A stretch of DNA of 64,000 nt. It comes from Thermodesulfobacteriota bacterium (GTDB lineage Bacteria; Desulfobacterota_D; UBA1144; Nemesobacterales; Nemesobacteraceae). Within the stretch, counting starts at the first letter, position 1. Every line of letters begins with the position of its first letter. The notes under the pieces were generated by a model, which had not been told where the DNA came from, searched no databases, and saw only the letters and a list, made by a program, of their open reading frames with translations. The position numbers and the translations under genes are program-made. The stretch is from NCBI GenBank assembly GCA_965197885.1, contig OZ240231.1, positions 845,501-909,500 on the forward strand, given 5' to 3'. This document shows, piece after piece, positions 25,458 through 50,837 of the stretch.

Positions 25458-26843
25458 TCAGGATTTCCCCTTCTTCGCTCTTTTTCTCTCCGCCCAGCCC
25501 TTTATTTCCTTCTGTACCGCGCGCTCTATCGCGAGAGCGCCCGAGGAAACGTCTTTTGTTACGGTGGAACCTGCCGCCGTAGTCGCGTCCTTTCCCACTT
25601 TTACAGGCGCAACCAGCATGGTGTCACTCCCTATGAAAGCGCCGTCTTCCACCACGGTTCTGTGCTTGTTCACGCCATCGTAGTTACAGGTGATGGTTCC
25701 CGCACCGATATTAACCCCGGCGCCGATATCGGCATCTCCCACGTAGGACAGATGGGGAACCTTGGAACCGACTCCTATTTCCGATTTTTTTATCTCAACG
25801 AAATTTCCGATCTTGGCTCCGCTTTTTATCCTGGCCTCGGGCCGCAGGTGACAGAAAGGCCCCATTACAACGCTGTCTTCGACTTCGCACCCCGTAAGAT
25901 ACGAAGAGAACCTTACCTCGACGTTATTTCCTATCAGTGAATCTTCAATGTATACGGATGGTCCTATTCTGCAGCCGTCCCCGATGCGAGCTTCGCCGTG
26001 GATATAAGTATTCGGATACACAGTCGTATCCTTACCTATGCTTACCGAGTCCGATATGTAAGTGGTTTCGGGATCTACTATTGTAACCCCGTTTTCCATG
26101 TGTCGGCGGTTTATCGCGCGTCTTACGGTTTTTTCCGCTTCGCCGAGCTGTTCTCTGCTGTTCACTCCAGACACCTCCTTTGGATCTGCCAGCGTAAAAG
26201 CCAGAAGCCTGCGTTTACGGGAAACGCAGAGATTTATGATTCCGGGCAGGTAATACTCTCCCTGGCTGTTTTCCCTGTCGAGTCCGCCCAGGCTTTCCCA
26301 GAGAAAAGAGGAATTCACGCAGTAAATTCCGGCATTTATTTCTTTTTCTTTTTTCTCGTCCGCAGTGGCGTCTTTATCCTCCACTATGCGAAGTACTTCC
26401 CCTCCGGCATTCCTCAACACCCTTCCGTATCCGCCGGGGTCTTCGACCACTGTGGATATGAACGAAACATCCGTCCCGTTTTTCACGTGGGAATCCGTAA
26501 ATTCACGCAGAGTAGAAATGCCCGTCGCGGGGACATCTCCGCTCAGTATAAGAATATCTCCCGAAAAATCCCGGAGAGCACCCTCACAGCACGAAACCGC
26601 GTGCCCCGTTCCAAGCTGCGGCTCCTGAATTACCGTCTTCACCGGGTAATCGGAAACCGTCTCTCTCACAAGCTCAGAGTCATGCCCCAGAACAAGTACG
26701 ATTCTATCAGGTTCCATCTCTTGAGCCACATCCAGAACATAGTGCAGCATGGGTTTTTTGAGGATGGGGTGGAGCACCTTGGGAAGTTCCGAATTCATGC
26801 GGACTCCCTTGCCCGCCGCCAGAATTATAACGGCCAGAGACAT
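25458..26843 (-). CDS. glmU: bifunctional UDP-N-acetylglucosamine pyrophosphorylase / glucosamine-1-phosphate N-acetyltransferase
   Basis: 461 aa. LAAGKGVRMNSELPKVLH N-terminal nucleotidyltransferase. C-terminal left-handed beta-helix hexapeptide repeats. Confidence 0.95.
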   Translation of the reverse strand: MSLAVIILAAGKGVRMNSELPKVLHPILKKPMLHYVLDVAQEMEPDRIVLVLGHDSELVRETVSDYPVKTVIQEPQLGTGHAVSCCEGALRDFSGDILILSGDVPATGISTLREFTDSHVKNGTDVSFISTVVEDPGGYGRVLRNAGGEVLRIVEDKDATADEKKEKEINAGIYCVNSSFLWESLGGLDRENSQGEYYLPGIINLCVSRKRRLLAFTLADPKEVSGVNSREQLGEAEKTVRRAINRRHMENGVTIVDPETTYISDSVSIGKDTTVYPNTYIHGEARIGDGCRIGPSVYIEDSLIGNNVEVRFSSYLTGCEVEDSVVMGPFCHLRPEARIKSGAKIGNFVEIKKSEIGVGSKVPHLSYVGDADIGAGVNIGAGTITCNYDGVNKHRTVVEDGAFIGSDTMLVAPVKVGKDATTAAGSTVTKDVSSGALAIERAVQKEIKGWAERKRAKKGKS

Positions 26844-39960: not shown

Positions 39961-40746
39961 ATGACCGAAAACAAAGAAATTCTCGTAAAAATTGAAAATT
40001 CCGTATGCACCCTTACGCTTAATCGCCCCGAGAAAAGGAATTCTCTTACCCCAAAGACTCTCAAACTGTTAACAGAGAAATTTCTAAACCTGGGGAAAAT
40101 ATCCGAAATCAGATGTGTTGTAATAAGAGGAAGCGGTGATAGGGCCTTCTGCTCAGGATACGATATAGACTCAATATCTGACGAAGAGATTGCCATAGAA
40201 AACAACCATCCCCTCACCGAAGCCATGCAGTCCGTAAAGTCTTACCCTCTTCCCGTAATAGCAATGATAAACGGTCACGCTTTCGGGGCAGGGCTTGAAC
40301 TCGCGGTGAACTGCGATATAAGAGTGTGCGTTGCCGACGCAAAGCTCGCAATCCCGCCTGCAAAACTTGGAGTCACTTATCATTACGGCGGAATAAAGCA
40401 ATTTCTGAACTTGGTGGGTTCCGGGTTTACAAGGGAGCTTTTTTTAGCGGGAAACTCCGTTAACGCCGAAAAAGCCTTGGAAAAAGGGCTTGTCAACCAT
40501 GTTGTAAGAAGAGACGAGCTTGAAGAATTCACCTACGCGCTTGCCGAGGAAATAAGCGAAAACGCGCCGCTTTCCATGATATCGATGAAAAAGATGATAA
40601 ATATCTGGGAAGAGAAAAATCCGCTTTCAAGAGAAAATGAAGAACTTATAAAATCGCTTCTTGCCAAAGTAAGGGAAAGCAGCGACGCGAGAGAAGGAAA
40701 AAAAGCCTTTCTCGAGAAAAGAAAGCCCGTTTTCAAGGGAAAATAG
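39961..40746 (+). CDS. enoyl-CoA hydratase/isomerase (crotonase) family protein
   Basis: Start at MTENKEILVKIENSVCTLTLNRPEKRNSL. FCSGYDI...GHAFGAGLELAVNCDIRV oxyanion-hole motifs. Confidence 0.85.
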   Translation: MTENKEILVKIENSVCTLTLNRPEKRNSLTPKTLKLLTEKFLNLGKISEIRCVVIRGSGDRAFCSGYDIDSISDEEIAIENNHPLTEAMQSVKSYPLPVIAMINGHAFGAGLELAVNCDIRVCVADAKLAIPPAKLGVTYHYGGIKQFLNLVGSGFTRELFLAGNSVNAEKALEKGLVNHVVRRDELEEFTYALAEEISENAPLSMISMKKMINIWEEKNPLSRENEELIKSLLAKVRESSDAREGKKAFLEKRKPVFKGK

Positions 40747-40759
40747 AAGCTTTTATAAT

Positions 40760-41665
40760 TCAGTCTCCGTAACCGAATTCCTTTATCAGGAAATCACTCT
40801 GAGTCCAGTTCTCCTTAACCTTCACCCAAAGTTCCAGAAACAACTTTACTCCCAGGATTCTTTCAATTTCAACCCTGGCCTCAGAACCGATCTGCTTGAG
40901 CATCCCCCCGCCCTTCCCTATTAGAATTCCCTTGTGGCTTTTTCTCTCAACGTAGATTTCCGCGTTTATCCTTATCAGGTTTCGCTCCTTATCCTCGCTG
41001 AACCCCGAAACCACCACGGCAACCCTATAGGGGATTTCTTTCCGCGTAAGGTTGAATACCTTCTCCCTTATGAGTTCACTAACGTAAAAGATCTCGGGCT
41101 GATCCGTGAAAACATCATCGGGAAAATATTTCGGTCCCTCGGGCAGGTGTTTTTTTAGAAGTTGGGTGAGTTGCTCTACCCCATCGTTGTTAAGAGCTGA
41201 GATGGGGATTATTTCGAGGAACTTCTCAGAGAATCTCTCGGCAGCCGAAAGTACCGATAGGAGCTTTGATTTTTTTACCTTGTCGATTTTGTTTACGACA
41301 AACACAGAAGGTTTCCTGAGCATCTTCAGTATGGATTCGTCTGCTGCTCCGAAAGGTTTTTCCACGTCCGTAACAAACGCCACTAGGTCGGCATCCGACA
41401 GAGCACTGCTTACCGCTCGGGCCATGGATTTTCCAAGCCTGCTTTTTTCCCTGTAAACACCCGGGGTATCAAGAAAAACCAGTTGGGAATCATCAAAAGT
41501 CTTTACGCCCAAGATTCTGTTTCTGGTAGTGCTCGGCTTATCCGAAACGGCCGAGACTTTTTCTCCCACGATGGAATTTACAAGAGTGGACTTGCCGACG
41601 TTGGGCCGTCCTATAACGGAAATGAACCCGGATCTGAAACCCTCTTTTGAAGTTGTTTTGGACAT
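40760..41665 (-). CDS. era: GTPase Era
   Basis: 301 aa. GFISVIGRPNVGKSTLVN G1 motif. DTPG. C-terminal KH domain. Confidence 0.95.
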   Translation of the reverse strand: MSKTTSKEGFRSGFISVIGRPNVGKSTLVNSIVGEKVSAVSDKPSTTRNRILGVKTFDDSQLVFLDTPGVYREKSRLGKSMARAVSSALSDADLVAFVTDVEKPFGAADESILKMLRKPSVFVVNKIDKVKKSKLLSVLSAAERFSEKFLEIIPISALNNDGVEQLTQLLKKHLPEGPKYFPDDVFTDQPEIFYVSELIREKVFNLTRKEIPYRVAVVVSGFSEDKERNLIRINAEIYVERKSHKGILIGKGGGMLKQIGSEARVEIERILGVKLFLELWVKVKENWTQSDFLIKEFGYGD

Positions 41666-41776
41666 GGGAACGGATCTTTAGCTAGATCTTAACGAAGAGC
41701 TGCCGAGTTTTTCTCAGAAGAACATTCTTCTACAGTATAATTTACCGTCATCTCTGAAGCAAAAGCCGATTTCCCA

Positions 41777-42016
41777 ATGGAAATGAGTCGAAGCAAAGAT
41801 ACATCACATCCAATTACTCACTGGTTCAGAAACGACCTCAGACTCTCGGATAATCCGGCGCTCGCAGAGGCAGCGAAATTCACTCGACCCGTAGTGCCGG
41901 TTTACATACTTGAAGACTCGGGGATTTCTTTAGGAAATACATGCCCTTTTCCTATTGTAGATCATATGAATGCTCGAAACCGTGCTCTGGAAATGTTCAA
42001 ACAACTGAGATGTTAA
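41777..42016 (+). pseudogene. phr: remnant of a deoxyribodipyrimidine photolyase/cryptochrome gene (N-terminal ~45 codons only, then divergent tail and stop)
   Basis: ITHWFRNDLRLSDNPALAEAAKFTRPVVPVYILED matches the photolyase N-terminal alpha/beta-domain motif (WFRxDLRLxDNxAL...V.PV.I.D). The ORF is 79 aa against ~470 aa for intact enzymes. Confidence 0.65.
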
Positions 42017-42167
42017 ATGTCTTTATCATTAATCGGTATACAACAAGAATATTTACGTTCAATATAACGGATATTCCTGAAGGCCAAGGCATTAAATCAC
42101 TATGATCGAGTGGTTAAATTCAGAGTAAGATTGATTCAACAATTACTTTTGCCACAATGCCGAACTT

Positions 42168-42195
42168 ATAAAAAAGCCCCCGAATGCGAGGGCTT
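42168..42195 (-). terminator. rho-independent terminator of tracrRNA (8-bp GC-rich stem, CAUU loop, U6 tail)
   Basis: Plus strand has ttataaaaaagcccccgaatgcgagggctt. Only the minus-strand reading has a U-tract. Confidence 0.7.
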
Positions 42196-42285
42196 GGTTC
42201 TCCTTGGAGATTACCTACGAAGCATTTGCTTCTTGTTATGAATAGCAAATTTCGTGGCCTATTCAGTCAGTTATAAACTTTCTGT
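42168..42285 (-). ncRNA. tracrRNA: tracrRNA for the type II-C CRISPR-Cas9 system
   Basis: Anti-repeat at 42233-42284 is complementary, with a 9-nt bulge and a G:U pair, to the minus-strand CRISPR repeat. Downstream on the minus strand come a GAAGCAAAUGCUUC hairpin (42219-42232) and a UCUCCAAGGAGA hairpin, then terminator hairpin AGCCCUCGCAUUCGGGGGCU + U6 (42168-42195). Confidence 0.8.
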
Positions 42286-42290
42286 GATAT

Positions 42291-42318
42291 ATTATACGAC
42301 TTAGATTAGAAAAAGCAA
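42291..42318 (-). promoter_or_regulatory. sigma70-type promoter for tracrRNA (-10 TATAAT 42291-42296, -35 TTGCTT 42313-42318, 16-nt spacer), inside the divergent cas9/tracr control region
   Basis: Minus strand reads TTGCTTtttctaatctaagtcgTATAATatatcac. Predicted TSS ~42284, a few nt before the anti-repeat. Confidence 0.55.
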
Positions 42319-42347
42319 CAAACGGTTGTAACTACGAGGGGTAACCC

Positions 42348-45300
42348 ATGAAGACTAAAGGATACGAATTCGGAGAATACTCAATAGGTTTGGATGTAGG
42401 AACAAATTCGATTGGCTGGAGCGTGATAAAAGAACAAAGCGGCAAACCCCAAGAATTTGTTGATTGCGGGAGCCGTATATTTGTCCGCTCGGTTGAAGAC
42501 AAATCCCCTACTCCGAAAAACAGGAAACGAAGGGAATCACGCCTTCAGAGAAGACAAATACAGCGTCGCAGCAGACGCAAAAACCGCCTCAGGAACTACC
42601 TGATTCTAAAAGGCTTTCTCCCTGAAGTACTAAAAAACAATCCAACTCCTGAGGAAGAACTGAACAAACTTGGAGACCCCTACATTATAAGAGCGAAAGC
42701 ACTGGATGAAGAACTGACTCCTTATGAATTTGGTCGCGCCATACTTCACCTAGGAACGAGAAGAGGGTTTCTGAGCAATCGCAAAACTTCGTTCGGTGAT
42801 CTAGGGAATGATATGAACGCTCGTGAGATACTCGAGAAGGAGGACGAAAGCACGAATGCAAAAGACAAAGAAGAGGGAAAACTCAAAGAAGAAATTGAAA
42901 AACTCAGAGAGAACATAGCCAAAGGCGGCGCGCGCACCTTGGGAGAATACCTTGCTGGGCTTCCGCGCAAGCGAAACAGAGGAGACTTTCATGATCGTCA
43001 TACCGACCGCAGGATGTACAACGAAGAGTTCTCCGAAATATGGAAAAAGCAGTCAGGCTATAACCCCCGACTCCATGATGAGAAAACAAGGAATGAACTC
43101 GAAAAGATCATCTTTTCTCAAAAACCTCTTAAACTAAAGCCGGACCGTGTGGGACGCTGTTCCCTTGAACCTAATCTGTCGCGGACAAGGCAAGGACGTC
43201 TTGAGTTCCAGCGTTTTCGCTACTGGCAGGATATAAATAACCTCTCTTACTATGACCCTGAAACCGGCGAAACGGGAATAGAATTATCAGAGGAGCAAAG
43301 AAAGAAACTCGCCGAAACCTTGGAAACAACAAGAGAGCTTACATGGGCCAAAATCAGGGCCCTGTTGGGATTAAACAAGAAAACGAGTTTCAACCTCCAA
43401 AAAGTTGAAGGCAAGAAAAAAGGTTTGAAAGGAAACCGTACTGCTCACGATATAGACGAGATCATTGGAGACAAGTGGAATTCCCTTAATGAGTCGGAAC
43501 AAGGCTTGCTGGTTGAGGATATCATCTCCTATACATCAAAGAAGGGACTGAAAAAACGTCTCACCAATCACTGGAATTTCTCCGAAGAGGAAGCAACTAG
43601 GCTCGCTGTGATGGAATTGGAAGAAGATCACGCAAGTCTCTCGCTAAAAGCAATAAGAAAAATCCTTCCCCACATGCAAGAAGGGAGAAAGTATAGCTAT
43701 AATCCGGATGATGCAACACAAGATGGCGCAATACAAGCCGCGGGGTACAAGGTTGAACCACCAGAGAGAGGGAATCTCGATATTCTTTCATCTCCACCTT
43801 GGATTCCTAATCCAATAGTTCAGAAAGCCCTTTATGAAATCCGCCGCGTTGTTAATGCGATTATCAGAAAGTACGGAAAGCCATCTGCGATAAGAATAGA
43901 AATGGCCCGTGATCTGGAGATGAACACAAAGAGATATAAGCAGTTTCTCGCGAGACAGAGTGAAAACACAAAAGCAAATCAAGAGGCGGAAGAACAATAT
44001 AGCGTTATCCGGGATAAAAATCCTCATTTGAACCTTCGCAGAAATATAAGCTATCAAGACAAGCTGAAATATAGGCTTTGGAAGGAAAGCGGAAGAAGAT
44101 GTGTTTACAGCGGAAAAAGTATAGGTATGACTGAGCTTTTTACTCATGCGACAGAAGTTGATCATATACTCCCTTACAAAAGTACTCTTGATAATTCATA
44201 CATGAACAAAGTCATTTGTCTTTCCAAAGAGAACAAGGAAAAAAGAGATCGAACTCCCTGGGAAGCGTTCGGCAACACATCCAGATGGGAAGAAATTCTG
44301 ATAATATCAAAGGATTTTCCAGAACCGAAAAGAAAGAGAATTTTAGCCAAAGAACTCCCCGATGATTTCATAAGCAATCAGTTAAATGACACACGTTACA
44401 TATCAAGAGAAACAGCAAAGTATCTAAGGAAACTGGGTTGTGATATAACTTTTACTAAAGGGGGTGTGACAAGCTGGCTACGTCATCAGTGGGGACTCAA
44501 CAGCCTGCTGGGAGGGAGTGAGGAAAAGAGCAGGAACGACCACAGACATCATGCTATTGACGCAACGGTGATTGCCCTTACAAATCGCAGTCTTTACCAG
44601 AAAATCGTTCATTTGGCTTCTGAATCTGAAGATGGTTCCGTATCACCGGAACATGGAATGGAAGTTCCTACACAGATTCCTGAACTTCGTGACGACCTAT
44701 CCGAACGCTTAGATAAATTGATAGTATCGCACTCTACTAACAGGAAACTGGCAGGAGCATTTCACGAAGAAACAGCTTACGGAATAAGAAGAGGGACTGA
44801 CGGAAAGCTTGGAGTTGTAGTCAGGAAAACGCTTACTAGCATGACAGACAGAGATAAAAGAAATATTGTCTGTCCGATAATCAAAAAAGCGGTTGAACTG
44901 TACGTATGGGAACGAGGTGGAAAAATAAAAGAAGCGATGAAGCGGTTACAGGAAGAACCTTTATTGCATCCAAGAACGGGAGATAAGATCCGACGGGTAC
45001 GCGTATGGGTATCAGAGATGCTGAATAGAGATTCCTATTGGGAGCACATAGCTCCGTGGAATAAAGATAAAGTTTTGCGCATTTTACCATATGGAAATAA
45101 TCACCATGTAGAAATATTAAGAAATCGTGAGAATGGAAAATATGGAGCTAAATTCGTAACTACCATGGAAGCCGCAAGAAGGGAAAGAACACTAAAACAA
45201 CCGATTATACAGACAGACCATGGAGAAGATTGGGAATATATAACTTATCTATGTATTAATGATACCGTGAGTATAGAGGAAAACGGAAAAAGGAATTCCT

Positions 45301-45494
45301 ATCGGATTCAAGTACTTGACCCAAACCAAAAAAGAGTAGTTTTAAGGCTTCATACAGCTGCAACATTGGAAAACAGTAACGAGAGAAGACTGAGAACCAT
45401 TTCAGTATTAATGAGAGATTTAGAAATGAGAAAAGAATCGATAGATGTGCTGGGATGTTCTTCTATCTCTAATAAAAGTGGAATGAATGATTAA
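42348..45494 (+). CDS. cas9: CRISPR-associated endonuclease Cas9, type II-C (1048 aa)
   Basis: RuvC-I YSIGLDVGTNSIGWSVI (D16). Arg-rich bridge helix RRESRLQRRQIQRRSRRKNRLRNYL. HNH VDHILPYKSTLDNSYMNKV (His ~606). RuvC-III HHAIDATVIALTN (~734-738). GAGGGG RBS 6 nt before the ATG. Confidence 0.95.
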   Translation: MKTKGYEFGEYSIGLDVGTNSIGWSVIKEQSGKPQEFVDCGSRIFVRSVEDKSPTPKNRKRRESRLQRRQIQRRSRRKNRLRNYLILKGFLPEVLKNNPTPEEELNKLGDPYIIRAKALDEELTPYEFGRAILHLGTRRGFLSNRKTSFGDLGNDMNAREILEKEDESTNAKDKEEGKLKEEIEKLRENIAKGGARTLGEYLAGLPRKRNRGDFHDRHTDRRMYNEEFSEIWKKQSGYNPRLHDEKTRNELEKIIFSQKPLKLKPDRVGRCSLEPNLSRTRQGRLEFQRFRYWQDINNLSYYDPETGETGIELSEEQRKKLAETLETTRELTWAKIRALLGLNKKTSFNLQKVEGKKKGLKGNRTAHDIDEIIGDKWNSLNESEQGLLVEDIISYTSKKGLKKRLTNHWNFSEEEATRLAVMELEEDHASLSLKAIRKILPHMQEGRKYSYNPDDATQDGAIQAAGYKVEPPERGNLDILSSPPWIPNPIVQKALYEIRRVVNAIIRKYGKPSAIRIEMARDLEMNTKRYKQFLARQSENTKANQEAEEQYSVIRDKNPHLNLRRNISYQDKLKYRLWKESGRRCVYSGKSIGMTELFTHATEVDHILPYKSTLDNSYMNKVICLSKENKEKRDRTPWEAFGNTSRWEEILIISKDFPEPKRKRILAKELPDDFISNQLNDTRYISRETAKYLRKLGCDITFTKGGVTSWLRHQWGLNSLLGGSEEKSRNDHRHHAIDATVIALTNRSLYQKIVHLASESEDGSVSPEHGMEVPTQIPELRDDLSERLDKLIVSHSTNRKLAGAFHEETAYGIRRGTDGKLGVVVRKTLTSMTDRDKRNIVCPIIKKAVELYVWERGGKIKEAMKRLQEEPLLHPRTGDKIRRVRVWVSEMLNRDSYWEHIAPWNKDKVLRILPYGNNHHVEILRNRENGKYGAKFVTTMEAARRERTLKQPIIQTDHGEDWEYITYLCINDTVSIEENGKRNSYRIQVLDPNQKRVVLRLHTAATLENSNERRLRTISVLMRDLEMRKESIDVLGCSSISNKSGMND

Positions 45495-46398
45495 ACGCAT
45501 TATTGAGGTCAGCAATCCGTCTTACCTTCATATGAGAGACTACCAAATGATTGTTGAGCAAAAGAAAAATGAGATCGAAAGGATCCCTATTGAAGATATG
45601 GGAGTCTTGATACTATCAAATCCGGCAATAACAATTTCCTCAAGCCTTATAGCATCTTGCCAGCAAAATAATTGCATTATTGTTTTCTGTGACGGCAAAC
45701 ATCTTCCTGTATCTATTCTCCTACCACTATCCGGGAACTCCATGCATAGTAAGATTTTAAATATTCAAACAGGCGTAAAAAAGCCGACAAAAAAACGCCT
45801 GTGGCAAAAAATAATAATCGCAAAAATAGAATCCCAAGCAAAAGTATTGCTCTCTTGCGGTAAAAATGCTTCCGCCCTTGAGTCAATGAAATCACGCGTG
45901 AAAAGCGGTGACCCAGATAATGTTGAGTCTCAAGCTTCAAGGGTTTACTGGCCTCTTATGTTTGGAAAGGATTTCAGGCGGGACCAGAAGGCTGAAGGCA
46001 CGAATTCTTTATTGAACTACGGATATGCTTTGCTGAGAGCCTCCGTTGCTCGTGCGATTTGTGGAACGGGGTTGCACCCCGCTTTAGGAATCCATCATCA
46101 CAATCAGTACAACCCGATGTGCTTAGCTGACGATCTTATGGAACCATTCAGACCTGTTGTTGACAGAAAAGTCTATAAACTATGGGAAAAAGAAATATTT
46201 GTCGTCAGCAAAAAAACAAAATCATTTTTGTTGTCCTTTTTAGCTGAGCCTTTGATATTCAGGGATAAGAAACTCCCGTTTATGGTAGCTTTGCAGTACA
46301 CCGCTACAAGCTTGAAGAAAGCTTTAACTGATGGACCGGAATCCTTAGAAATACCAAGGCTTGCAATCAAAGAACAACAGGAGATGTTTTTGATATAA
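45487..46398 (+). CDS. cas1: CRISPR-associated endonuclease Cas1 (type II)
   Basis: 303 aa. NSLLNYGYALLRASVARAICGTGLHPALGIHHHNQYNPMCLADDLMEPFRPVVD. ATG overlaps the cas9 stop by 8 nt. Confidence 0.93.
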   Translation: MIKRIIEVSNPSYLHMRDYQMIVEQKKNEIERIPIEDMGVLILSNPAITISSSLIASCQQNNCIIVFCDGKHLPVSILLPLSGNSMHSKILNIQTGVKKPTKKRLWQKIIIAKIESQAKVLLSCGKNASALESMKSRVKSGDPDNVESQASRVYWPLMFGKDFRRDQKAEGTNSLLNYGYALLRASVARAICGTGLHPALGIHHHNQYNPMCLADDLMEPFRPVVDRKVYKLWEKEIFVVSKKTKSFLLSFLAEPLIFRDKKLPFMVALQYTATSLKKALTDGPESLEIPRLAIKEQQEMFLI

Positions 46399-46400
46399 AA

Positions 46401-46730
46401 ATGATTTTCGGGGGATATAAAACTTTGTGGGTAATAGTAATGTTTGATCTGCCCACAGATACAAAGGCAGACAGACGCTCTTATACATTATTTCGCAAGT
46501 CTCTTCTTCAAGATGGCTTTTCTATGCTTCAGTTCTCCGTTTATATCAGACATTGCGCTAGTGACGAGAATGCATATGTACATTCGGGAAGAGTTCGTAA
46601 TGCTTTACCACCTAAAGGAGAAGTTAGAATCATTAATGTCACCGATAAGCAGTTTGAAAGAATGCAGGTTTTTTATGGAAAAAAACGAAAGAAAACTGAA
46701 AAGGCTCCCAAGCAAATATCTCTTTTTTAA
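46401..46730 (+). CDS. cas2: CRISPR-associated endoribonuclease Cas2
   Basis: 109 aa. VIVMFDLPTDTKADRRSYTLFRKSLLQDGFSMLQFSVY, a typical Cas2 ferredoxin-like core. Starts 2 nt after the cas1 stop. Confidence 0.9.
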   Translation: MIFGGYKTLWVIVMFDLPTDTKADRRSYTLFRKSLLQDGFSMLQFSVYIRHCASDENAYVHSGRVRNALPPKGEVRIINVTDKQFERMQVFYGKKRKKTEKAPKQISLF

Positions 46731-46780
46731 TATGCTTGGGAGCCTAAATCACCCGCCAACAAGGCACTTTGGCGTGAAGC

Positions 46781-48008
46781 ATTCTAACTGACTGAAAGGC
46801 CCCCGCTATTCACAACACGGAAGCCGAGATAGACTTCGAGCTTTTATTCTAACTGACTGAAAGGCCCCCGCTATTCACAACTGTTCCGCTGTCAGTAGTT
46901 TCCTTAGCTTATTCTAACTGACTGAAAGGCCCCCGCTATTCACAACTCTTTGTTTTATCGGATCCCAGAATCCCACATTCTAACTGACTGAAAGGCCCCC
47001 GCTATTCACAACGGTTATCGATCGGTCCAGGTGGACGATGGTATTCTAACTGACTGAAAGGCCCCCGCTATTCACAACCGTCAGGGCAGAGTCCTCAAGA
47101 ACTATCCATTCTAACTGACTGAAAGGCCCCCGCTATTCACAACTTACGCGTGGAGCATGATGCTGAAGATTCTATTCTAACTGACTGAAAGGCCCCCGCT
47201 ATTCACAACGCTTATAGATGTGGTTAATCCGGCTAACTCATCATTCTAACTGACTGAAAGGCCCCCGCTATTCACAACTATCACCCGGAGTTCCCCCTGT
47301 TTATCCATATTCTAACTGACTGAAAGGCCCCCGCTATTCACAACCGGTTCGGGCGGCAGAGATACGGAGGGGGATTCTAACTGACTGAAAGGCCCCCGCT
47401 ATTCACAACTTAGTATCGAATGATTGAAACTGAACCAAGATTCTAACTGACTGAAAGGCCCCCGCTATTCACAACAGAAAAGGGATAATCCTTATCATGC
47501 CATCGATTCTAACTGACTGAAAGGCCCCCGCTATTCACAACTGAATCTATACGATATTGTGATGGGTTCAAATTCTAACTGACTGAAAGGCCCCCGCTAT
47601 TCACAACAGAAAAGGGATAATCCTTATCATGCCATCGATTCTAACTGACTGAAAGGCCCCCGCTATTCACAACTGAATCTATACGATATTGTGATGGGTT
47701 CAAATTCTAACTGACTGAAAGGCCCCCCCACAACATTCACAACCCTTCTCGGTCCCGGTCCCGTGGCGGGTCCATCCTAACTGACTGAAAGGCCCCCGCT
47801 ATTCACAACCCGCGTGTATCTCTTCCAGAATCGCGCTTAATTCTAACTGACTGAAAGGCCCCCGCTATTCACAACACAGTATGCTTAGTTGCTTCGGGTG
47901 GGAAGGATTCTAACTGACTGAAAGGCCCCCGCTATTCACAACTATAGGCTTCGGATTCATCAACCTGGTCGAATTCTAACTGACTGAAAGGCCCCCGCTA
48001 TTCACAAC
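46781..48008 (-). CRISPR. CRISPR array: 19 direct repeats (36 bp; repeat 15 is a 40-bp variant, repeat 16 has one substitution), 18 spacers of 29-33 bp. Transcribed orientation inferred as minus strand.
   Basis: Plus-strand repeat ATTCTAACTGACTGAAAGGCCCCCGCTATTCACAAC at 46781, 46846, 46911, 46977, 47043, 47108, 47174, 47243, 47309, 47374, 47440, 47506, 47572, 47638, 47704(var), 47774(var), 47840, 47907 and 47973. Minus orientation begins GTTGTG like other II-C repeats and matches the tracr anti-repeat polarity. Confidence 0.97.
47476..47739. repeat. tandem duplication of a 132-bp block (spacer-repeat-spacer-repeat) inside the CRISPR array
   Basis: Spacers at 47476-47505 and 47608-47637 are identical (agaaaagggataatccttatcatgccatcg). 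Spacers at 47542-47571 and 47674-47703 are identical (tgaatctatacgatattgtgatgggttcaa). Confidence 0.9.
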
Positions 48009-48010
48009 GC

Positions 48011-48784
48011 TCAGAAAATCCCGCCTATCGATCTAACAAGACCCGCCTGAAGATGCGGTTTCGCATCCACAAAATCCAAGTTCGCCTTGTTGGCAACGCT
48101 TATAACTCTGGTCCTGTATATTTTCCATTTAACATCATCAGCATGAGAAGTCTGCTTGGTCCGCGTCGCAGTACCTTGAGATGCATCGGTATCTTCGCTC
48201 TGATAAACGAGTTCTCCTTCCCGGGCACGCTCCCTGATCTGAATATCGGTCACCATCGTGAAAAGATCATCCGTCACGAGCGCGTCAAAAATAAATCCTG
48301 CTATTCCGCCGGCGATTCCCCCAAGCACAGTGCCCTTGTTTATCTCATCAACATCTCCGCCTATGGCGCCTCCTATCACAGCTCCGACAACAGCGCCTTC
48401 GACCACACCTTGGTAACCCTCTCCAAGCATGGCATTTGTTTCCTTAAGATTGGTTTTTCCGACCTTGAGTATGTTGGCCTGAAGAATGAAAGTCGCCTCG
48501 GCCGGGTCTTCCGTGACCTTAAAACCGCTAGAGACTATCCTGCCCTTGATTCCGTACTCAATCCCGGGCAGTTCCTTGTCAGTCGTATTTTTTACGTCGA
48601 CGTAAACTACTCTCTCTTCGGGCGACACCGGTTCAAGAAAAATCGTCTCCGACATTTTAGTTTCAACGGTAAGTTTCCTTTTCTCGATAAGGGTCCTAGT
48701 TGCCGCGCAACCGTTTACAAGAAAAACAAAACAGATAGCTATAGCAAAAAACAGATTTTTTTTACAGGCAAGCTCTTTTCTCAT
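48011..48784 (-). CDS. traT: TraT-like outer-membrane lipoprotein (complement-resistance / surface-exclusion protein family)
   Basis: Signal peptide plus lipobox LVNGC. Extended similarity to F-plasmid TraT (KRKLTVETKMSETIFLEP..., ILQANILKVGKTNLKE, glycine-zipper GAVVGAVIGGAIGG, C-terminal YRTRVISVANKANLDFVDAKP). AAAGGAG RBS. Confidence 0.8.
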   Translation of the reverse strand: MRKELACKKNLFFAIAICFVFLVNGCAATRTLIEKRKLTVETKMSETIFLEPVSPEERVVYVDVKNTTDKELPGIEYGIKGRIVSSGFKVTEDPAEATFILQANILKVGKTNLKETNAMLGEGYQGVVEGAVVGAVIGGAIGGDVDEINKGTVLGGIAGGIAGFIFDALVTDDLFTMVTDIQIRERAREGELVYQSEDTDASQGTATRTKQTSHADDVKWKIYRTRVISVANKANLDFVDAKPHLQAGLVRSIGGIF

Positions 48785-49040
48785 TTATCAAAACTCCTTT
48801 GATTTTAGTGTTGGTGGAAAAATTTCCGCCTTCCGAACTAAAATCGTATGTAAAAAAAGAGGAAAAAACAAATGGAAAAAAAGAGTATGAAGGACACGCT
48901 CCACCCAGGCTTCCTTTCTCAGAAATACAAAACAAAGAATCACGCCTTAACCTTTTCTTGAAATGGTGTGAGAACCTTGCCAATGCAAATCAATCTAGTA
49001 TGATTAGCCAATTCTTGACTGCCGGGAGAACCACGTTTTC

Positions 49041-50837
49041 ATGCTTGAACTTATGGGAGAGTGGAAAAGATCGAATTTCTGCGGAGAGCTTGGGAAAAAG
49101 CACATTGACAGTTCCGTTACGCTCATGGGCTGGGTACAGTCCCGAAGAGACCACGGCGGGGTGATTTTCGTTGACCTGCGCGACAAGGACGGACTCTGTC
49201 AGATCGTTTTTAACCCGGAACGTGACCCAAAAATCCATCAGACCGCGGAGCAACTGCGGGACGAATGGGTAATCGCCATAAAGGGTAAGGTAACGCCGAG
49301 AACGGAGGAAACCATAAACCCGAACCTTAAAACCGGCGAGATCGAGGTCATAGCGCAGCAGGTAAAGGTTCTTAACACTTCAAAAGTAATACCGTTTCTT
49401 ATAGAAAACGAAGTGAACGCCGATGAGCTTCTGAGGCTGAAATACCGTTATCTCGACCTGCGAAGACCGCCAATGCGGGATAACATAATCTTCCGCCACA
49501 AAGTCGCCGCCGCGGTCCGAAACTACTTTAATGAAAACGGGTTTCTTGAGATCGAAACCCCTTATTTCACGAAATCAACTCCGGAAGGTGCAAGGGACTT
49601 TCTTGTTCCGAGTCGGCTTAACGAAGGGCAGTTCTACGCGCTCCCCCAGTCGCCCCAGATACTGAAACAGACCCTAATGATCTCGGGTTTTGACAGATAC
49701 TACCAGATAGTGAAATGCTTCAGGGACGAGGACCTAAGAGCGGACCGCCAGCCCGAATTCACCCAGATAGACATGGAAATGTCCTTTGTCTCAGAAGATG
49801 ACGTGATCTCCATTGTTGAAGGCATGATAAAAACGGTCCTTCAGGAGACGAAAGGAATTGATGTCCCCACTCCTTTTTTGAGAATGCCTTATGAAGAAGC
49901 CATGGAGAGGTACGGAACCGACTGCCCTGATACAAGATTCGCTCTTGAACTAAAAGACATCTCCTCCATATTCGAGAACTCGCAGTTCAAGGTGTTTCGC
50001 GGAGCCTTGGAAAAAGGAGGGGCGATAAAAGCGCTTAACCTTAAGGGAGGAGCCGGGAAACTCACCAGAAAGGAAATAGACGATCTTACCGAATACGCAG
50101 TCTCTCTCGGGGCAAAAGGGCTTGCATGGATAAGGGTCGGCGAGGATGGATGGAACTCTCCCATAGTGAAGTTTCTAAGCGAAGAGGAACGCGGGCTTTT
50201 AGCCTCCGCTCTCTTGATGGAAAAAGGAGACATAGTGTTTTTCGGCGCGGACTCCGTTGAGATGGTAAACCAGGTGATGTCAAACGTAAGGCTAAGCCTC
50301 GGTAAAACTCTTTCGTTTGTTGACGAAGAAAAACTTGAATTCCTCTGGGTAGTCGATTTTCCGCTTTTCAAGTACAGCCCCAAGGAAAAAAGACACGTCG
50401 CCGTTCACCACCCTTTTACCGCCCCCAAGGACGAGGATGTCGAAAAAATCGAGAGTTCCCCGGGGAGCGCCGCTTCAAAATCCTACGACATAGTCTTAAA
50501 CGGAGTTGAGATAGGAGGGGGAAGCATAAGAATTCACAGAAAAGACATACAGCAAAAAGTGCTTGACGCAATAGGAATCGGAGAGGATGAAGCACAGGAG
50601 AAATTCGGTTTTCTCCTCGAGGCCCTTGAATTCGGAGCTCCTCCCCACGGAGGCATAGCGCTCGGTCTTGACAGGATTTTAATGCTTCTGCGCGACGAAG
50701 AATCGATAAGAGACGTAATAGCTTTTCCCAAAACGCAGAAGGGCTCCTGTCCCCTTACAGAAGCCCCGTCTGAGGTTTCCCCGGAGCAGCTTCTTGAGGC
50801 AGGAATAAGCACTATTGCCAAAAAATCAGAAGATTGA
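49041..50837 (+). CDS. aspS: aspartate-tRNA ligase (start possibly at MGEWKR, nt 49053)
   Basis: 598 aa. N-terminal OB domain CGELGKKHIDSSVTLMGWVQSRRDHGGVIFVDLRDKDG. Class II motifs FRDEDLRADRQPEF and GGGSIRIHR...GLDRILMLL. Confidence 0.96.
   Translation: MLELMGEWKRSNFCGELGKKHIDSSVTLMGWVQSRRDHGGVIFVDLRDKDGLCQIVFNPERDPKIHQTAEQLRDEWVIAIKGKVTPRTEETINPNLKTGEIEVIAQQVKVLNTSKVIPFLIENEVNADELLRLKYRYLDLRRPPMRDNIIFRHKVAAAVRNYFNENGFLEIETPYFTKSTPEGARDFLVPSRLNEGQFYALPQSPQILKQTLMISGFDRYYQIVKCFRDEDLRADRQPEFTQIDMEMSFVSEDDVISIVEGMIKTVLQETKGIDVPTPFLRMPYEEAMERYGTDCPDTRFALELKDISSIFENSQFKVFRGALEKGGAIKALNLKGGAGKLTRKEIDDLTEYAVSLGAKGLAWIRVGEDGWNSPIVKFLSEEERGLLASALLMEKGDIVFFGADSVEMVNQVMSNVRLSLGKTLSFVDEEKLEFLWVVDFPLFKYSPKEKRHVAVHHPFTAPKDEDVEKIESSPGSAASKSYDIVLNGVEIGGGSIRIHRKDIQQKVLDAIGIGEDEAQEKFGFLLEALEFGAPPHGGIALGLDRILMLLRDEESIRDVIAFPKTQKGSCPLTEAPSEVSPEQLLEAGISTIAKKSED

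Follow-up and report, generated by a model that had tools for sequence, protein, structure and literature searches.

The window analysed here, a 64-kb stretch of DNA, carries a CRISPR-Cas9 locus whose genes lie on the plus strand in the order cas9 (42348–45494; 1048 aa; TIGR01865, E = 2e-202), cas1 of the type II NMENI subtype (45487–46398; TIGR03639, E = 1.8e-87) and cas2 (46401–46730; TIGR01573, E = 2.5e-20). The operon consists of these three genes alone, without csn2 or cas4, and the CRISPR array follows directly after cas2, which is the organization expected of type II-C. In the array (46781–48008), 19 repeats, each 36 nt long, alternate with spacers of about 30 nt, and the crRNA-sense repeat, GUUGUGAAUAGCGGGGGCCUUUCAGUCAGUUAGAAU, is read on the minus strand. 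Upstream of cas9 are era (40760–41665, minus strand) and a photolyase remnant (41783–42010, plus strand). Between the remnant on one side and cas9 on the other lies an intergenic element whose predicted start and the cas9 ATG are about 63 nt apart; it is very probably the tracrRNA gene of this type II-C locus. We describe its anatomy, uniqueness, conservation, co-variation and strand.

Two neighbouring genes deserve mention. The photolyase remnant joins residues 1–46 to residues 443–482 of a 483-aa gene, which is intact at the equivalent position in L080, L082, L083 and other related loci (described below) and is missing from L081 and L088. At the far end of the array, an ORF for a TraT-like lipoprotein (48011–48784, minus strand) stops 2 nt short of the last repeat and is directed into the array, and its transcription could read through into the repeats. 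The same position in related loci is taken by other minus-strand inserts, AAA/DUF4276 and nucleotidyltransferase/HepT toxin-antitoxin pairs.

A structure search gave type II-C entries of about 1082 aa, for example 6JDQ, as the nearest solved structures to the Cas9 of the window; we take 6JDQ and the related entries to be N. meningitidis Cas9. The nearest named homologues among the matches listed were from Candidatus Dadabacteria and "Thermodesulfobacteriota" MAGs (about 57–59% identity), and relatives at 75–99% identity were numerous in metagenome assemblies. A literature search on Dadabacteria and Cas9 found no publication.

A predicted small RNA gene upstream of cas9

The element is read on the minus strand. 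A −35-like hexamer, TTGCTT (42313–42318), and the −10 box TATAAT (42291–42296) are separated by 16 nt, exactly as the first-pass annotation had reported, and the pair is conserved in relatives. The promoter was not listed by a consensus promoter scan, because TTGCTT matches TTGACA at only three of six positions. From the geometry of promoter and terminator, and from a block of sequence conserved in 12 loci, we predict a primary transcript of about 115 nt (42170–42284), which would start at 42283–42285, about 7 nt downstream of TATAAT, and end in the U-run at 42175–42170. The 42-nt anti-repeat (42235–42276) is separated from TATAAT by about 14 nt. The first-pass annotation had called it an imperfect reverse complement of the repeat, which it is, but had placed it at 42233–42284 and about 5 nt after the start; the string quoted there corresponds to 42234–42276, and the first paired base lies about 8 nt after 42283–42285.

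The anti-repeat pairs with the 36-nt repeat through two stems and an internal loop. In the lower stem, GCUAUUCAUAAC (42246–42235) pairs with repeat nucleotides 1–12 (GUUGUGAAUAGC) over 12 bp with one G:U, a reading that can be taken directly from the sequence and that agrees with the earlier description. The adjoining nine nucleotides, ACGAAAUUU (42255–42247), lie opposite the repeat GGG; nine had been counted previously, but they form an asymmetric 9/3 internal loop and not the bulge that was drawn. RNAcofold offered an alternative in which the repeat GGG is paired with UUU and a 6-nt bulge is left. Beyond the loop, AGGCC (42260–42256) pairs with the repeat GGCCU over 5 bp, and a bulged U at 42261 separates this helix from a 12-bp helix in which UAACUGACUGAA (42273–42262) pairs with UUCAGUCAGUUA, followed by a G·A mismatch and two further pairs. 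The upper stem comprises 17–19 bp, somewhat more than the 15 or so that had been claimed.

The 65-nt tail 3′ of the anti-repeat folds into precisely the three proposed hairpins (z = −4.26; 0 of 200 shuffles were as good). These are stem-loop 1 (SL1), GAAGC-AAAU-GCUUC (42219–42232), stem-loop 2 (SL2), GGU/AA/UCUC-CAAG-GAGA/ACC (42196–42215), and an intrinsic terminator, AAGCCCUCG-CAUU-CGGGGGCUU followed by six U residues (42170–42195). Two short hairpins and a strong terminator with a U-run had been proposed from the sequence; the hairpins were borne out by tail folding and by compensatory changes in the alignment, and a terminator scan returned a stem of nine pairs (42195–42174), six of them G-C, with the U6 run extending to 42170. 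Thus the element is predicted to possess both its own promoter and a Rho-independent terminator. Use of the hairpin as a plus-strand terminator of the upstream gene is unlikely; no U-run lies 3′ of the stem on that strand. We also rejected a "tracr-L / natural sgRNA" autoregulatory form, since the roughly 8 nt between the predicted start and the anti-repeat leave no space for a long form and the sequence upstream is unconserved.

A scan with tracrRNA covariance models had been suggested as a check. The Rfam scan of 40000–50000 at E ≤ 10 gave no tracrRNA match, only chance matches, and a hit to Phe_leader is simply the tracr terminator. This outcome is expected, because tracrRNAs have no shared sequence or structure (PMC3737331), and it fits the presence of a single tracrRNA family in Rfam (PMC9067536).

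The strength and uniqueness of the duplex were examined with RNAduplex by scanning all 60-nt tiles of both strands of the window outside the array against the repeat. The tracr site was the best partner, at −44.1 kcal/mol with about 30 pairs, compared with a background of −16.0 ± 4.4 kcal/mol (a separation of about 6.4 sd). Co-folding of the repeat with the tracr RNA, another check named in the first-pass annotation, yielded a stable complex: RNAcofold gave −71.0 kcal/mol for the minus/minus combination versus −57.6 kcal/mol for plus/plus. The second-best site (25831–25900, plus strand) reached −35.9 kcal/mol and was to some degree an outlier of the distribution, and one could envisage that the true tracrRNA is encoded there, or outside the window, and that the element next to cas9 is a regulatory decoy. 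What this site holds is a stretch of 15 nt that copies part of the repeat core with one mismatch (TGACAGAAAGGCCCC; 25848–25862, plus strand), which we regard as a chance match and rejected as an anti-repeat. The minus-strand frame at about 25850 is open across the 500 nt examined, so the stretch is probably coding; no terminator was seen there, and the site is 16 kb from the locus. No better anti-repeat exists within the 64-kb window, and no other candidate was found in any related locus, which makes a tracrRNA encoded elsewhere extremely improbable.

Conservation and co-variation of the element

We compared the window with 11 syntenic loci (n = 12) whose Cas9 proteins are 49–85% identical to that of the window. 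Nine of them (L080–L088; 64–82% identity) were obtained by an exact Cas9 look-up, and L016 (59%) and L028 (49%) came from the genome collection, among the matches listed. Most share the gene order era, an optional photolyase, cas9, cas1, cas2 and array; eight of the nine loci from the look-up have era, on the minus strand, and a TraT-like gene follows the array in five loci. When the 260 nt that precede cas9 were aligned in minus-strand orientation, a sharply bounded block emerged that runs from the −35/−10 region to the U-run, with both flanks unalignable. A TTG hexamer 16–18 nt upstream of TAnnnT was the top or co-top promoter candidate in 11 of the 12 loci, the exception being L083, where the aligned TTGCTT is not in the best-scoring promoter pair. 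The aligned −10 of close relatives is TATAAT, TATAGT or TAAAAT.

The repeat differs from locus to locus, chiefly in its middle, and the anti-repeat changes along with the repeat of its own locus. For example, repeat C22 is matched by a tracr G in L088, where other loci have U:A; the lower-stem GCUA became UCAA on both partners in L028; repeat C33 pairs with G in L016; and the AAAAAGC block is altered on both partners in L081. To put numbers on this, pairs were counted on sgRNA-like chimeras (repeat, GAAA and tracr) of the 12 loci against a structure that we specified. Pairing was found in 92.9% of cells, compared with 29–42% when the partners were slid by one to three columns, and both-sided (compensatory) changes occurred in eight pairs, compared with 2.1 ± 1.2 in shuffles, none of 500 of which reached eight. 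RNAalifold, which was given no structure, yielded the same helices, arguing that repeat and anti-repeat have co-evolved. The distal three or four duplex pairs are mismatched in several loci (pairs 33:44 and 35:42).

Similar changes were seen in the tail. Pair 96:103 of the alignment, in SL1, is G-C in six loci, A-U in three and G-U in three. SL2 contains three pairs with double changes, including the replacement of UCUC/GAGA by GCCU/AGGU in L016, and a C-G pair of the terminator is swapped to G-C in 5 of the 12 loci.

The search was widened to 31 more distant loci of the same clade that possess an array (Cas9 31–49% identical, among the matches listed), in which anti-repeats were sought with blastn-short. 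These loci are from Gammaproteobacteria, Planctomycetota, Acidobacteriota and other groups, and include Blastopirellula marina DSM 3645. In 29 of the 31, the best repeat-like sequence outside the array was on the strand opposite to the Cas9 match and about 50–190 nt upstream of it, and the tails follow a common scheme, ...AAC-AAG-SL1-CGYAGG-SL2-ACC-terminator.

These comparisons bear on whether the element is a functional RNA or only a decayed orphan repeat, that is, an array relic or duplicated repeat that happens to lie beside a terminator. Degenerate repeats are considered the likely origin of tracrRNAs (PMC3737331), and similarity to the repeat does not by itself separate a relic from a tracrRNA. 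However, a relic would not keep a promoter, two hairpins and a terminator across Cas9 proteins of 31–85% identity, nor would it track changes in the repeat by compensatory substitutions, and we give this explanation almost no credence. The conserved block, the duplex and the co-variation in 12 loci instead support the first-pass view of a II-C-like tracrRNA of about 115 nt on the minus strand.

Strand of the tracrRNA and of the array transcripts

On the plus strand the sequence of the repeat is ATTCTAACTGACTGAAAGGCCCCCGCTATTCACAAC, and on the minus strand it is GTTGTGAATAGCGGGGGCCTTTCAGTCAGTTAGAAT. [quoted passage not shown] Plus/plus co-folding still gave the −57.6 kcal/mol noted above. Moreover, the sequence that separates cas2 from the first repeat is conserved and "leader-like", and perfect repeats lie towards cas2, with degenerate ones on the far side. 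A conserved leader-like flank and perfect repeats mark the promoter end in many CRISPR types.

The details of the duplex and its surroundings argue otherwise. All 12 loci retain the G4:U wobble in the lower stem; this pair, like the further G:U pairs of the stems, would turn into an A·C mismatch in plus-strand RNA. Hairpins and a terminator are found 3′ of the anti-repeat in the minus reading only, whereas on the plus side the corresponding sequence, which leads into cas9, is unconserved and has neither hairpins nor a terminator. The canonical GUUGU... start of the repeat likewise comes from the minus reading. A consensus scan between cas2 and the array found no plus-strand promoter-like site. 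The same discrepancy in polarity is displayed by N. meningitidis and C. jejuni, in which array transcription runs counter both to the cas operon and to the direction expected from the usually mutated last repeat (PMC3737331). Taken together, the conserved G:U pair (12/12) and the conserved position of the tail place the tracrRNA, and hence the crRNA, on the minus strand, and a plus-strand arrangement is very unlikely.

The array transcripts would leave the repeats on the cas2 side. At this exit, a hairpin lies over the cas2 stop codon (46744–46703, minus strand) and is followed by a U-rich tract (46702–46680); it has 13 pairs and is conserved in the 12 loci, with compensatory changes in six pairs and several G:U pairs that exist on the minus strand only. 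The hairpin and U-tract are likely to be the terminator of the minus-strand array transcripts, which would stop in and past the cas2 3′ end, so that the terminator lies partly within the cas2 coding sequence. The strand of tracrRNA and crRNA is thus minus, as four independent points in the sequence fix it, and the crRNA-coding strand proposed in the first-pass annotation stands, on the basis of the minus-only G:U pairs and this terminator-like hairpin.

crRNA synthesis may also begin within the repeats. The repeat ends in TAGAAT at its 3′ end, and the TAnnnT pattern is kept in all 55 arrays examined (the window and 54 loci), without a TGn extension. The repeats of N. meningitidis and C. jejuni are each equipped with a promoter (PMC5965381), and crRNAs here may start from the −10-like TAnnnT box in the same manner. 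Repeat-embedded promoters are a reasonable inference by analogy, and stay at that level because the TG extension is missing.

Several features concern the history of the array. Across loci, the stretch from cas2 to the first repeat (46731–46780) shows conservation, degenerate repeats occur at the cas-distal end of the array in L080, L081 and L084, and L028 has a partial copy just past its array. With conservation next to cas2 and degenerate repeats at the distal end, the polarity of spacer acquisition seems to be opposite to that of transcription. In the array of the window, moreover, two repeat-spacer units (132 bp) are exactly duplicated in tandem (47440–47571 is identical to 47572–47703); next come a corrupted 40-nt repeat (47704–47743) and then a repeat with one substitution (47774).

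Relation to known type II systems and to the cas9 promoter

The S. pyogenes type II-A tracrRNA was reportedly described by Deltcheva in 2011, and this work and that of Jinek in 2012 are said to be the sources for established type II biology. By this precedent, the tracrRNA of the window would be transcribed divergently from cas9, from about 42284 to the intrinsic terminator at about 42170, and its 5′ 42 nt, the anti-repeat, would pair with the repeat (36 nt) in CRISPR transcripts from the minus strand. The 3′ 65 nt, which hold SL1, SL2 and the terminator hairpin, would serve as the scaffold for Cas9 binding, and the crRNA:tracrRNA duplex, once loaded into the 1048-aa Cas9, would lead to guided DNA cleavage. 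Expression of the tracrRNA, co-processing by RNase III, binding by Cas9 and cleavage of DNA are thus inferred from type II biology (PMC3737331).

The position of a tracrRNA just upstream of cas9 and on the opposite strand had been described by Chylinski et al. in 2013, who used as prediction criteria an anti-repeat, an intergenic location, pairing, a promoter and a terminator (PMC3737331); the element of the window shows each of these, the promoter and the terminator as predictions. The placement and architecture of the tracrRNA are therefore conventional, being the norm for the II-C clade, and together with the antisense transcription of the array they match what has been known of type II-C since 2013 and pose no new biological question. 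[quoted passage not shown] Unlike in these species, the tail has no detectable sequence similarity to theirs, the −10-like box of the repeat lacks TG, and the host belongs to an uncultivated lineage.

The type II-A tracrRNA of S. pyogenes shares the position upstream of cas9 on the opposite strand and the succession of anti-repeat, scaffold hairpins and terminator, and a role in crRNA maturation and Cas9 loading may be presumed for both. In contrast, the subtype in the window is II-C, without csn2, the gap to cas9 is a mere 63 nt or so, and the roughly 8 nt between start and anti-repeat leave no room for tracr-L. A metagenomic survey described a II-C tracrRNA model, CRISPRCas_38, that is typically ≤100 nt upstream of cas9, as is the element here, but that is found mostly in Bacteroidetes (PMC9067536); the window differs from it in lineage and in repeat family, a comparison made by description only.

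The distance between the tracrRNA start and cas9 has a further consequence. The start is always about 50–65 nt from the cas9 ATG in this II-C clade, and the tracr −35 box of the window extends to 30 nt from the ATG; with a gap of only about 63 nt, the two promoters must overlap if cas9 is to be transcribed from within it. A plausible candidate extended −10 for cas9, TGATATATT (42285–42293, plus strand), overlaps the tracr −10; it is hypothetical, being a match to the consensus only. Of the 12 loci, 7 have a TGnTAnnnT at the corresponding site, and TATTAT (42290–42295) is an alternative plus-strand −10. It should be noted that such plus-strand matches arise easily, because A/T-rich −10 boxes are nearly palindromic. 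The segment 42285–42296 might serve both cas9 and the tracrRNA as the core of a bidirectional promoter. A stronger form of this idea, in which the promoters are interlocked, with overlapping −10 boxes and each −35 within the transcribed region of the other, as a feature conserved in the clade, strikes us as doubtful. If it were so, RNA polymerase would fire one promoter at a time, resulting in a fixed tracrRNA:cas9 ratio or a switch. Alternatively, transcription of cas9 could begin at a more distant upstream site and pass through the tracr gene. Divergent co-regulation of the tracrRNA and cas9, which had been suggested from the overlap, is accordingly no better than a rather unlikely possibility at the level of sequence.

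For this compact Cas9 (1048 aa), whose host lineage is uncultivated, the practical value of these results would lie in the guide-RNA scaffold and the crRNA strand that they supply. The sgRNA design derived from the duplex is N20–24 followed by GUUGUGAAUAGC, GAAA, GCUAUUCAUAAC and AAGAAGCAAAUGCUUCGUAGGUAAUCUCCAAGGAGAACCAAGCCCUCGCAUUCGGGGGCUUUUUU, and the 12-locus alignment shows which scaffold positions are tolerant of change.
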